The position numbers and the translations under genes are program-made. A DNA stretch of 64,000 bases. Source: Escherichia coli (GTDB taxonomy: Bacteria; Pseudomonadota; Gammaproteobacteria; Enterobacterales; Enterobacteriaceae). The notes beneath the pieces were generated by a model. It was given only the letters and a program-made list of their open reading frames with translations, made no database searches and was not told the origin of the DNA. How positions within the stretch are numbered: the first letter of the stretch is position 1; each line of letters opens with the position of its first letter. Location of the stretch: the NCBI RefSeq assembly GCF_003334305.1, contig NZ_QOWS01000015.1. One strand, written 5' to 3'. Shown here piece by piece: positions 28,862 to 43,848 of this stretch.

Positions 28862-29206
28862 TTACACCGCAGCCACAATCTTAATTTCAACTTTATACTT
28901 CGGGTTCATCAAACCCGCTTGTACCGTGCAGCGCACCGGCGCATGACCCGCGACAACCCAGGCATCCCACGCTTTATTCATCGCCGCGAAGTCGTTTTTA
29001 TCGGCCAGGAAAATGGTGGCATCCAGAATGCTCGATTTATTGCTGCCCTGTTTTTCCAGCACGGCATCAATCTGCGCCAGCGTGTTGGCGGTTTGCTCAA
29101 AGGCATCGGCGTCGAGGTTTTCCGGTACACCAGTGTAGTAGAGCGTGTTGTTGTGGATTACCACATCAGACCAGCGGGCTTCAGCATCGATACGAACGAT
29201 AGTCAT
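28862..29206 (-). CDS. yoaB: RidA/YjgF-family protein YoaB
   Basis: ORF 28862..29254 trimmed to MTIVRIDAEA start (114 aa). Confidence 0.8.
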   Translation of the reverse strand: MTIVRIDAEARWSDVVIHNNTLYYTGVPENLDADAFEQTANTLAQIDAVLEKQGSNKSSILDATIFLADKNDFAAMNKAWDAWVVAGHAPVRCTVQAGLMNPKYKVEIKIVAAV

Positions 29207-29313
29207 CATTTTGTCCTCATTATCCTTCCATTTTCGTGCTGCAAAGACTGCCACAATGTGAGGTCGCCGTCACCACTTCAACTGGCGAAAGCGCCCTCAT
29301 CCTGACATAATCC

Positions 29314-29329
29314 CTGTTCAAATCAACAG
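29314..29329. promoter_or_regulatory. LexA (SOS) box upstream of yoaA
   Basis: Exact CTGT-N8-ACAG palindrome CTGTTCAAATCAACAG, 9 bp before the yoaA GTG start. Confidence 0.65.
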
Positions 29330-29337
29330 GGGGTAGT

Positions 29338-31248
29338 GTGACGGACGATTTTGCACCAGACGGTCAGCTGGCGAAAGCGATACCAGGCTTTAAGCCGCGA
29401 GAACCACAGCGACAGATGGCGGTAGCCGTCACCCAGGCGATAGAAAAAGGCCAGCCGCTGGTGGTGGAAGCAGGAACCGGTACGGGCAAAACCTACGCTT
29501 ACCTGGCTCCTGCGCTGCGGGCGAAAAAGAAAGTCATTATCTCGACCGGCTCAAAAGCGTTGCAGGATCAGCTCTACAGCCGCGATTTGCCAACAGTCTC
29601 AAAGGCATTGAAATATACGGGCAACGTGGCGCTGCTGAAAGGGCGCTCAAACTACCTCTGCCTCGAACGTCTCGAACAGCAGGCGCTGGCGGGGGGCGAT
29701 CTGCCGGTACAAATCTTAAGCGATGTGATCCTGCTGCGCTCCTGGTCTAATCAAACAGTCGATGGTGATATCAGCACCTGCGTCAGCGTGGCGGAAGATT
29801 CACAGGCGTGGCCGCTGGTCACCAGCACCAACGACAACTGTCTTGGCAGCGACTGCCCGATGTATAAAGATTGCTTTGTGGTCAAAGCACGTAAAAAAGC
29901 GATGGACGCCGATGTGGTGGTGGTAAACCATCATCTCTTTCTGGCGGATATGGTGGTTAAAGAGAGTGGATTTGGCGAACTGATCCCGGAAGCGGACGTC
30001 ATGATCTTCGACGAAGCCCACCAGCTACCGGACATTGCCAGCCAGTATTTTGGTCAGTCACTCTCCAGTCGACAACTGCTCGACCTGGCAAAAGACATCA
30101 CCATCGCTTACCGCACCGAATTAAAAGACACCCAGCAGTTACAAAAGTGCGCTGATCGTCTTGCCCAGAGTGCGCAGGATTTTCGTCTGCAACTCGGTGA
30201 GCCAGGTTATCGCGGTAACCTGCGTGAGCTGTTAGCTAATCCGCAAATTCAGCGGGCATTTTTACTGCTCGATGACACCCTGGAACTTTGTTATGACGTG
30301 GCGAAACTGTCACTGGGGCGTTCCGCCTTGCTGGATGCGGCATTTGAGCGCGCCACGTTGTATCGCACACGGCTGAAGCGGCTAAAAGAGATCAATCAGC
30401 CGGGCTACAGCTACTGGTACGAATGCACTTCGCGCCATTTTACTCTGGCTCTCACGCCGCTCAGCGTGGCGGATAAATTCAAAGAGTTAATGGCGCAAAA
30501 GCCCGGTAGCTGGATCTTCACCTCAGCAACGCTGTCGGTGAACGACGATCTGCATCATTTCACCTCGCGGCTTGGGATAGAACAGGCGGAGTCGTTGCTA
30601 TTGCCAAGCCCGTTTGATTACAGCCGCCAGGCGTTACTCTGTGTGCCGCGCAATCTGCCGCAAACCAACCAGCCAGGTTCTGCTCGCCAGTTAGCGGCAA
30701 TGCTGCGACCGATCATCGAAGCTAACAACGGTCGTTGTTTTATGCTTTGTACCTCGCACGCCATGATGCGCGATCTGGCCGAGCAGTTCCGCGCTACCAT
30801 GACGCTTCCCGTTTTGTTGCAGGGGGAAACCAGCAAAGGGCAACTGTTGCAGCAATTTGTCAGCGCCGGTAACGCGCTTCTTGTGGCAACCAGTAGTTTC
30901 TGGGAAGGGGTGGACGTGCGTGGCGATACATTGTCATTGGTGATTATCGACAAGTTGCCGTTTACCTCACCGGATGACCCGCTGTTAAAAGCGCGCATGG
31001 AAGATTGCCGTTTGCGCGGTGGCGACCCGTTCGATGAAGTGCAACTACCAGATGCCGTCATTACTCTCAAACAAGGGGTAGGGCGACTGATTCGCGACGC
31101 CGACGATCGTGGCGTGCTGGTGATTTGTGACAATCGGCTGGTGATGCGCCCTTACGGCGCGACGTTTCTCGCCAGTCTGCCGCCCGCGCCACGCACCCGT
31201 GACATTGCCCGTGCGGTTCGTTTCCTTGCGATACCATCCTCCAGGTAA
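29338..31248 (+). CDS. yoaA: DinG-family ATP-dependent helicase YoaA
   Basis: 636-aa ORF with Walker A AGTGTGKT, DEAH box, Cys cluster for Fe-S; GTG start. Confidence 0.9.
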   Translation: MTDDFAPDGQLAKAIPGFKPREPQRQMAVAVTQAIEKGQPLVVEAGTGTGKTYAYLAPALRAKKKVIISTGSKALQDQLYSRDLPTVSKALKYTGNVALLKGRSNYLCLERLEQQALAGGDLPVQILSDVILLRSWSNQTVDGDISTCVSVAEDSQAWPLVTSTNDNCLGSDCPMYKDCFVVKARKKAMDADVVVVNHHLFLADMVVKESGFGELIPEADVMIFDEAHQLPDIASQYFGQSLSSRQLLDLAKDITIAYRTELKDTQQLQKCADRLAQSAQDFRLQLGEPGYRGNLRELLANPQIQRAFLLLDDTLELCYDVAKLSLGRSALLDAAFERATLYRTRLKRLKEINQPGYSYWYECTSRHFTLALTPLSVADKFKELMAQKPGSWIFTSATLSVNDDLHHFTSRLGIEQAESLLLPSPFDYSRQALLCVPRNLPQTNQPGSARQLAAMLRPIIEANNGRCFMLCTSHAMMRDLAEQFRATMTLPVLLQGETSKGQLLQQFVSAGNALLVATSSFWEGVDVRGDTLSLVIIDKLPFTSPDDPLLKARMEDCRLRGGDPFDEVQLPDAVITLKQGVGRLIRDADDRGVLVICDNRLVMRPYGATFLASLPPAPRTRDIARAVRFLAIPSSR

Positions 31249-32040: not shown

Positions 32041-32622
32041 ATGGCGGTTCAAAAGAATGTTATCAAAGGCATACTGGCAGGTACGTTTGCGCTAATGCTG
32101 AGCGGTTGTGTCACTGTGCCGGACGCCATTAAAGGCAGCAGTCCCACGCCGCAACAAGATTTAGTTCGGGTGATGAGTGCGCCGCAGCTGTACGTTGGTC
32201 AGGAGGCACGCTTTGGTGGCAAAGTGGTTGCGGTACAAAACCAGCAAGGGAAAACCCGCCTGGAAATTGCTACTGTACCGCTGGACAGCGGAGCCAGACC
32301 GACGCTGGGAGAACCTTCTCGCGGTCGCATTTATGCCGATGTGAACGGTTTTCTGGACCCGGTGGATTTCCGTGGACAACTGGTTACGGTAGTCGGGCCA
32401 ATCACTGGTGCGGTTGACGGCAAAATCGGCAATACGCCCTATAAATTTATGGTGATGCAAGTAACGGGTTACAAACGTTGGCATTTAACCCAGCAGGTGA
32501 TTATGCCGCCTCAGCCGATTGATCCATGGTTTTATGGCGGTCGTGGCTGGCCCTATGGCTACGGCGGATGGGGCTGGTATAATCCCGGCCCCGCGAGAGT
32601 ACAAACAGTTGTAACTGAATAA
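32041..32622 (+). CDS. yeaY: Slp-family outer-membrane lipoprotein YeaY
   Basis: 193-aa ORF with lipobox LSGC. Confidence 0.85.
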
Positions 32623-37939: not shown

Positions 37940-39550
37940 TCAGTTGTCGCCTTTGAATACGGTTCCCGCAGGGAGCACTGGTGTTTTTTCCAGGGCTTCA
38001 ACCGGTGTCTGCGGGAGATAATGTTCAACTTGATGAGCCGGAATGTCGGCGTAATCCTGTTTCAGCCAGCGAATAAATCCGCCGACTTTCACCAGTAAAA
38101 TGACGAGGAAGGGAAGGGCTGTGAGCACGACGGTGGTTTTCATCGTTTCCAGCGAAGCACCGGTAAACAAGATGGAAAGCGGGATCAGAGTGATCACCAC
38201 GCACCAGAAAAGACGCAGCCCACGGTCAGGATCGTCACCTTCCTGGAGATTACGCGTACTGGTCGCAGCCATGGTGTAGGCCACCGCATCCATATGCGAG
38301 GCAAGGAAAATAATCATCACGCCCAGGTATGCGGCGAGGAACAATTTACCGGCTGGCAACGACATCAGAACTTGCTGTACAGCTGTTTCGCCGCCCAGTG
38401 TTTCCAGCACCTGTGGGACGTTGATTACGCCATTGATAAACTGATGAATGGCATAGCTTTCCATTACGCCGAAGAAGAACCAGCAACCGACGGTGCTGCC
38501 GAGGATCAGTCCCCAGATAACTTCTTTAATCTTACGACCGCGGGAAACGCGGGTGACAAACATTGCTACGCCAGGGGTGTATGAGATCCACCACAGCCAG
38601 TAGAAAACGGTCCAGTTGCGGGTAAATGAACCATCGCCAAGCGGATCGGTGAATAAGCTCATTTGCAGGAAGTTTTGCGTGGTCAGACCGATGGCATTGA
38701 TGATGCTGTTGGTAATAAATTCGGTTGGGCCGACAATCAGCACCAGTAATGGCAGCAGGAACGCGCCCCAGCCAACCATTTTGCTCAGACGTTGCAAACC
38801 GTTGTTGATACCAATCCACGAGCTTAGGCAAAAAATGCCGCCGGAAAGCAGGATCACAAATGCCTGCACGGTGAAGTTATCGGGTAAACCGGTCAGCGCG
38901 GAAAGTCCACGAGTAAAGGTTGCTGCGGTGACAACAAGGGAAATAGTCAGTGCGCCGACAGTGGCGATCAGGAACATCAAATCAACCAGTTTTCCCCATG
39001 GGCCTTGCGGGCGAACGCCGGTAATCGCGGCAATAATGCCGGAAAGACTCAGACCTTTGTTTTTACGCACATGAAAGTGATAAGCCATGATTAATGAGGC
39101 CAGCGTATAAGTTGCCCAGGCGCTGATGCCCCAGTGGAAGAAGGAGTAAGGGACGCTAAATTCGAGTGCCTGTTGTGAACGCGGTGCGATATTTAATCCA
39201 GGCGTTTGATAATAATAGGCCCATTCAGCAACCCCCCAATAAAGCGTAGAAGAACCTAAACCGGCACAAATAAACATAAACAGCCAGGAGAGTGTGCTGT
39301 ATTCCGGTTTTCCTTCGCCAAGACGAATATTGCCGTATTTACTGGTGGCTAAATAAATCACCAGTCCCATTGCCAGCAAAACCAATACCTGTACGGCGGA
39401 ACCTAACGTACGCGTAACAAAAGTGTATATTGCGTTGGCCGCGTCGGCCGATTGTTGTGGGAAAAGGCTTAATGCAGCTGCGATGAAAAGAATGGCCACC
39501 AGGCTGATGCTTATCAGCGGCACATCTTTTTTCTTAACATTGCTCATCAT
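37940..39550 (-). CDS. yeaV: BCCT-family transporter YeaV (probable carnitine/betaine-type substrate)
   Basis: 536-aa polytopic ORF with CaiT/BetT-like N-terminus; exact start uncertain. Confidence 0.8.
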
Positions 39551-42849: not shown

Positions 42850-43209
42850 ATGCTGCAAATCCCACAGAATTATATTCATACGCGCTCAACGCCTTTCTGG
42901 AATAAACAAACTGCGCCTGCCGGAATATTCGAACGTCATCTTGATAAAGGAACGCGCCCGGGGGTTTACCCACGCCTTTCCGTTATGCATGGGGCGGTCA
43001 AATATCTCGGCTACGCTGATGAACACAGTGCAGAGCCTGATCAGGTGATCCTTATCGAAGCGGGGCAGTTTGCGGTGTTCCCTCCAGAAAAGTGGCACAA
43101 CATTGAAGCCATGACTGACGATACTTATTTCAACATTGACTTCTTCGTGGCTCCTGAAGTCCTGATGGAAGGTGCGCAACAACGGAAAGTCATTCATAAC
43201 GGGAAATGA
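42850..43209 (+). CDS. yeaR: DUF1971 protein YeaR (nitrosative-stress inducible)
   Basis: 119-aa ORF; synteny. Confidence 0.9.
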   Translation: MLQIPQNYIHTRSTPFWNKQTAPAGIFERHLDKGTRPGVYPRLSVMHGAVKYLGYADEHSAEPDQVILIEAGQFAVFPPEKWHNIEAMTDDTYFNIDFFVAPEVLMEGAQQRKVIHNGK

Positions 43210-43212
43210 ATC

Positions 43213-43401
43213 ATGGGCAAAGCAACGTATACCGTGACCGTCACCAATAACAGCAATGGCGTTTCTGTCGATTATGAAACAGAGACGCCGATGACTTTGC
43301 TGGTGCCAGAAGTGGCGGCTGAAGTGATAAAAGATTTGGTGAATACCGTGCGTTCTTATCCGGTGCGCCGTAAAACCCCGTCCTTCAGGGCGGGGATATA
43401 A
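43213..43401 (+). CDS. yoaG: Small protein YoaG; 3' end appears to run into the IS left end
   Basis: 62-aa ORF starting 4 bp after yeaR; last ~15 codons overlap the predicted IS left-end hairpin. Confidence 0.75.
   Translation: MGKATYTVTVTNNSNGVSVDYETETPMTLLVPEVAAEVIKDLVNTVRSYPVRRKTPSFRAGI
43374..43397 (+). repeat. Predicted IS left-end subterminal imperfect hairpin
   Basis: CCCCGTCCTTCAGGGCGGGG; core 18-mer CGTCCTTCAGGGCGGGGA matches the right-end copy 16/18 in direct orientation. Confidence 0.45.
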
Positions 43402-43416
43402 GGCGCGGTTTTCCAC

Positions 43417-43848
43417 CTAACCAGGTGTTTGCTGTTGTTCAATGTATTGGCGGATGACGGATATTGGCGCACCTCCGCAGCTACTGGCAAAATAGCCAGG
43501 ACTCCACAAAACGCCTTTGTAGTAATACCTGACTGCAATATCTGGTCGATCTCGTCGCAGTAACCTACCCGATACGCCTTTGAGGCTGTTTACCAGACTG
43601 GATATCGCCAGTTTGGGAGGATAGTTAATTAACAAATGGACGTGATCTGGTTCGCCATCCATTTCAACAAGTTCAGCTTCAAAATCAGCACATACATTTG
43701 AAAAGTAAGTGCGTAGTTTTTCTGTCGCGTCATGGTCAAAAATCTGGAGTCGGTATCTGGTGACAAAGACCAGGTGAACATGCATCAGGAAAACACAATG
43801 CCTTCCACGCCGGATATCGGTTTCTTTTTTCACAGACCAAAGTATCAT
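43417..43848 (-). CDS. tnpA: IS200/IS605-family Y1 HUH transposase TnpA
   Basis: 143-aa ORF with HUH motif (PDHVHLLI) and catalytic-Tyr helix (GGAPISVIRQYIEQQ). Confidence 0.85.
   Translation of the reverse strand: MILWSVKKETDIRRGRHCVFLMHVHLVFVTRYRLQIFDHDATEKLRTYFSNVCADFEAELVEMDGEPDHVHLLINYPPKLAISSLVNSLKGVSGRLLRRDRPDIAVRYYYKGVLWSPGYFASSCGGAPISVIRQYIEQQQTPG

Follow-up and report, generated by a model that had tools for sequence, protein, structure and literature searches.

The 16-mer CTGTTCAAATCAACAG, which lies upstream of yoaA at positions 29314–29329 (+ strand) of the window, the 64-kb stretch of E. coli DNA analysed here, is very probably the LexA operator (SOS box) of the yoaA promoter. 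Its position, its conservation and the published genetics together make the site convincing.

The site and its surroundings

The site was found by reading the sequence and by a pattern scan of the 64-kb window. It has the CTG-N10-CAG core of a LexA box (CTG, 29314–29316; CAG, 29327–29329), and the extended CTGT and ACAG ends are also present. The features of the region are listed below.

28862–29206, − strand: yoaB (RidA family), the divergent neighbour of yoaA, with its start approximately 108 bp from the box
29283–29288, + strand: predicted weak −35-like hexamer TGGCGA, with 17 nt between it and CATAAT; TGG is conserved in orthologous promoters
29303–29311, + strand: predicted extended −10 of the yoaA promoter, TGaCATAAT (TG, 29303–29304; one base; CATAAT, 29306–29311), based on sequence and conservation
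29314–29329, no strand: LexA box core, CTGTTCAAATCAACAG; constitutive when mutated (PMC8378479), CTG and CAG invariant in 36 of 38 Enterobacteriaceae loci among the matches listed
29328–29333, + strand: Shine-Dalgarno-like AGGGGG, read from the sequence; it shares its first two bases with the end of the LexA box
29338–31248, + strand: yoaA, the regulated gene, with a GTG start; DinG/XPD-family DNA repair helicase (NF053712 match)

The yoaA open reading frame comprises 636 codons and matched the NCBIfam YoaA equivalog NF053712 with 922 bits (cut-off 680), so that the gene was correctly named as the DinG-like helicase yoaA in the sequence-only reading. Its GTG start at 29338 is the start annotated by RefSeq in E. 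coli genomes. The same reading had placed a CTGT-N8-ACAG element just before this GTG, and the sequence confirmed it: the two are separated by 8 nt (GGGGTAGT), which puts the start of the box at −24, as in the literature. The 1-kb stretch around the site matched 5425 of 5426 complete E. coli genomes at 95–100% identity, with yoaB (RidA family) and yoaA (ATP-dependent DNA helicase) as the annotated genes.

A strict two-hexamer sigma-70 scan of positions 29150–29400 returned no promoter, a consequence of the poor −35 (3/6 matches). The yoaA promoter was instead identified via its extended −10 and the conservation of this element. The box starts 2 bp past the extended −10, and the predicted transcription start (approximately 29317–29319) would fall inside it, so that the box overlaps the core promoter as deduced from sequence and conservation. 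At its other end the last bases of the box run into the AGGGGG Shine-Dalgarno sequence. The suggested overlap with promoter and ribosome-binding site was therefore well founded. GGGG follows the box in most Enterobacteriaceae loci among the matches listed.

Regulation of the divergent yoaB by the same box was considered and judged unlikely, given the distance of approximately 108 bp to the yoaB start and the lack of yoaB induction in a ciprofloxacin time course (PMC11002266). The yoaB gene is thus probably not under the control of this LexA box.

Published genetics and a model for repression

Published work has established both the need for the box in cis and the dependence of induction on LexA cleavage. 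Sutera et al. 2021 (PMC8378479) placed luxCDABE behind the 132-bp intergenic region, in a transcriptional fusion ending before the GTG, and mutated CTG(N)10CAG to CCC(N)10GGG. Their N10 is TTCAAATCAA and their box is located at −24; in both respects the yoaA LexA box of E. coli K-12 is identical to positions 29314–29329, and it is the same box. The mutant PyoaA-lux showed high constitutive expression, to which AZT added no further induction, and lexA3, which encodes a non-cleavable LexA, abolished most of the AZT induction. These results uphold the earlier proposal that the element is a LexA operator and that yoaA is SOS-regulated. Reviews also count yoaA among the LexA-regulated SOS genes. 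In RNA-seq data (PMC11228462, Table 1), yoaA was 4-fold up with AZT, and its lexA dependence was only 1.6-fold. A search of the openly searchable literature naming both LexA and yoaA found no LexA EMSA, footprint or ChIP at yoaA.

From the arrangement of the elements, we infer that a LexA dimer would bind directly to both half-sites, CTG and CAG, just 3' of the extended −10 and over the predicted transcription start. Bound LexA may prevent the formation of a productive RNA polymerase complex by steric occlusion. DNA damage or replication gaps would give rise to RecA filaments on single-stranded DNA and hence to self-cleavage of LexA, upon which the operator would empty and yoaA would be transcribed.

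Fit to the LexA consensus

The yoaA box is a weak match to the LexA consensus and not a consensus box, as which it had been described. The 20-mer scored for its fit, CCCTGTTCAAATCAACAGGG (29312–29331), agrees with the consensus TACTGTATATATATACAGTA at 11 of 20 positions (9 mismatches); the centre matches at 3/8 and the flanks at 0/4, and only the CTGT and ACAG ends fit. Leaky repression and modest induction are to be expected from such a poor fit.

For formal scoring, a matrix was built from the 18 LexA boxes of E. coli given in PMC3009722 and the heterology index (HI) was calculated with the Berg–von Hippel/Lewis formula. As the matrix was rebuilt from 18 boxes and is not the Lewis 1994 matrix, the resulting values (15.4 with the asymmetric and 16.6 with the symmetrised matrix) are not numerically comparable with published ones. 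Leave-one-out values for the 18 known sites were 0.6–12.6 and 2.0–17.0, respectively, so that the yoaA box ranked below every one of them with the asymmetric matrix and above a single one with the symmetrised matrix. The threshold applied for membership of the SOS boxes was an HI below about 12.6–15, against which stand the 15.4 and 16.6 from the rebuilt matrix and the published value of 13, obtained with the original matrix (Courcelle et al. 2001, as cited in PMC11228462); the latter shares last place with polB among the classical SOS boxes. Matrix scoring had been proposed as a check on the site, with a low HI as the refuting outcome; the check returned a poor score, and the proposed outcome was inverted, since a low HI denotes a good site.

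Within the window, 26 other positions outscored the yoaA box with the asymmetric matrix and 15 with the symmetrised matrix. The pattern CTGT-N8-ACAG occurred three times (the remaining two copies at 32273 and 44429), compared with 0.67 copies expected from shuffles and 0.97 from base composition, and the looser CTG-N10-CAG occurred 32 times. The match to CTGT-N8-ACAG is by itself not beyond chance, with approximately one expected per 64-kb window. The claim that the operator could be read with high confidence from the sequence alone thus did not hold.

The top LexA-like 20-mer of the window, TACTGGCAAAATAGCCAGGA (43482–43501; HI 12.5), lies inside a transposase gene, 66–85 nt upstream of the next open reading frame. 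The transposase gene (43417–43848, − strand) belongs to the IS200/IS605 family (NF033573, 143 bits) and is followed by a 176-aa open reading frame (42886–43416) with no family match. CTG-N10-CAG with an AT-rich spacer was found at 37976–37995 (CACTGGTGTTTTTTCCAGGG; HI 15.3) and at 1597–1616 (containing CTGGTTTAAGGTACAG; HI 16.4), both scoring about as well as the yoaA box or better. Several window 20-mers with a better HI had no CTG or CAG triplet.

Among the known SOS boxes, those of polB (GACTGTATAAAACCACAGCC) and dinG (TATTGGCTGTTTATACAGTA) resemble that of yoaA: each is a LexA operator in front of a DNA-repair gene, its HI is high and induction is modest (HI in PMC11228462: polB 13, dinG 8.6, yoaA 13). 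In the box of dinG, the paralogue of yoaA, the left half is defective and the right half is good. The yoaA box differs from both in that its CTGT and ACAG ends are perfect, whereas its centre (3/8) and its flanks (CC...GG rather than TA...TA) are poor. The strong boxes of umuDC and sbmC (TACTGTATATAAAAACAGTA), recN and tisB share the CTGT-N8-ACAG frame and the overlap with the core promoter, but they have an HI of approximately 2 and 6- to 70-fold induction (PMC11228462), compared with 9 mismatches to the 20-nt consensus in the yoaA box. Like those of polB and dinG, the yoaA box is one of the low-affinity sites of the E. coli SOS regulon.

Conservation in E. coli and the Enterobacteriaceae

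Promoter and box together showed 100% identity over their 60 bp in 4847 of 5424 complete E. coli genomes, among them a K-12 MG1655 derivative. In this derivative the box, −10, −35 and start codon are the same base for base, and the window strain shows single-base differences from it in other parts of the intergenic region. The single variant E. coli genome inspected had its mismatch in the spacer between −35 and −10, outside the box.

Scanning a collection of species-representative genomes with a degenerate DNA pattern for helicase motif I (VVEAGTGTGKTYAY) yielded at least 120 yoaA loci; Salmonella and Klebsiella lay outside the loci listed. Among the matches listed, and with the window counted in, the −10 region CTGACATAAT was invariant in 38 of 38 Enterobacteriaceae loci, and CTG-N10-CAG followed the −10 by exactly 2 nt in 36 of these 38 promoters. 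The 36 loci contained 13 distinct 16-mers, in which CTG and CAG never changed while the spacer varied. Genera with the box at this fixed offset include Escherichia, Citrobacter, Enterobacter, Lelliottia, Kluyvera and Kosakonia, as well as Cedecea, Pluralibacter, Pseudocitrobacter, Shimwellia, Siccibacter, Phytobacter and others. In the two exceptions, the Cedecea-like loci L083 and L101, a 1-nt deletion and a change of CTG to CGG have left a decayed box. The footprint is locally sharp: in E. albertii (L008) the spacer at 29289–29302 is almost wholly different from that of E. coli, while −35, −10, box and all flanking elements are unchanged. In the orthologous promoters among the matches listed, −35, −10, CTG/CAG and Shine-Dalgarno sequence explain all conserved columns.

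A perfect CTGT-N8-ACAG cannot be called an operator from sequence alone in 64 kb, because scoring ranks this functional site below at least 12 non-sites. Its fixed position on a conserved promoter and the footprint across species do identify it.

LexA-like boxes in other families

A LexA box is also present upstream of yoaA in Rahnella. The 160 nt preceding yoaA contained no CTG-N10-CAG in Serratia (L030, L060, L085), Yersinia (L052), Hafnia (L050), Pectobacterium (L019, L032), Dickeya (L079, L112) and Budvicia (L017, L078). For Salmonella, a survey of the SOS regulon does not list yoaA (PMC8072944).

The promoter motif YTGRCATAAT was seen as far out as the Vibrionaceae. The core promoter TTGGCATAAT is kept in Grimontia/Enterovibrio (L021, L089, L109), Salinivibrio (L016, L062) and a Plesiomonas MAG (L092), with LexA-like boxes placed elsewhere on it. 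In the Vibrionaceae the LexA-like sequence TACTGTATAAATGACCAATG overlaps the ATG start and has CAA rather than CAG as its right half (HI 9.6–12.6); in Plesiomonas, the −10 is immediately preceded by GGCTGTATTGATATACAGTT (HI 7.0). These shifted boxes on the same promoter suggest that the operator has turned over while SOS control of yoaA was retained.

Loci of the Pantoea/Erwinia type (Erwiniaceae; L038, L049, L059, L074, L080, L117) carry a palindrome over the −10, ACTGACATAATTACAGT, with the spacing CTG-N9-CAG, one base under that of LexA. Only Pantoea stewartii (L036) among these Erwiniaceae loci has N10 (CTGACATAATATACAG; HI 13.4). Locus L117 is labelled Enterobacter cancerogenus, yet its promoter is of the Pantoea type.

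Alternative explanations

The box is part of an inverted repeat, CCCTGTT-N6-AACAGGG, which could alternatively act as a hairpin in the yoaA leader RNA that sequesters the Shine-Dalgarno sequence and controls translation or stability, its likeness to a LexA box being incidental. The repeat can indeed form a stem of 7–8 bp with a 6-nt loop (−10.2 kcal/mol), the 3' arm of which reaches into AGGGGG. However, the fold is not better than that of shuffled sequences (z = −0.9; 28 of 200 shuffles folded at least as well), and in the published box mutant the stem is still fully complementary (−10.4 kcal/mol), yet expression is constitutive (PMC8378479), in a transcriptional lux fusion that stops before the GTG. 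Among the 16 different 20-mers of the orthologues, the arm bases next inward from the LexA contacts were complementary in only 2/16 and 3/16, so that pairing is confined to the positions contacted by LexA. The left arm would, moreover, not be transcribed, because the predicted transcription start lies within it. On the grounds of the shuffle test, the mutant stem and the arm pairing in orthologues we rejected the hairpin, which we consider highly improbable. That CTGT-N8-ACAG is a chance match devoid of operator function, with yoaA induction coming from elsewhere, is barely conceivable. The expectation of approximately one such pattern per 64 kb and an HI within the range of background sites would be compatible with it, but changing the box by site-directed mutagenesis relieves repression of the promoter (PMC8378479), and 36 of the 38 Enterobacteriaceae loci among the matches listed share CTG and CAG without change at one set distance from the −10, although the spacer varies. 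Mutagenesis and conservation footprint thus exclude a match by pure chance.

An addition to, rather than a replacement of, LexA binding is a second factor or condition that acts through the same operator region, such as a growth-phase regulator or a change in the level or affinity of LexA. It would explain a slow, late growth-phase induction of the plasmid reporter that remains in lexA3 (approximately 30% of wild type at 180 min) and is missing in the box mutant (PMC8378479), and which indicates that more than LexA cleavage is involved; the authors of that study propose an alternative route for relieving LexA repression. A weak operator would also be the first to empty if the concentration of active LexA dropped. 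Against a second input, the conserved promoter columns contain no candidate second motif, and the evidence for the effect is one study with a plasmid reporter. We regard such an input as possible but rather unlikely, and retain a LexA operator as the reading of the site.

Significance of a weak operator

The operator and its function were already known and were published in 2001 and 2021. New here are the cross-species footprint, the finding that formal scoring alone would not pick out the site, and the placement of LexA-like boxes in other families.

Across the Enterobacteriaceae lineages among the matches listed, the yoaA box had an HI of 12–17 on the rebuilt matrix and was never near the consensus, with CTG and CAG perfect at the fixed offset. 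We tentatively hypothesize, while considering it unlikely, that the poor fit of the operator is a selected setting rather than decay and keeps yoaA among the low-affinity members of the regulon. YoaA and HolD are competitors for HolC, a subunit of the clamp loader, and because of this competition a tight but easily relieved repression of yoaA would be biologically sensible. If the weak setting were selected, yoaA would be derepressible by small falls in active LexA, including the cleavage-independent derepression in the course of growth (PMC8378479).
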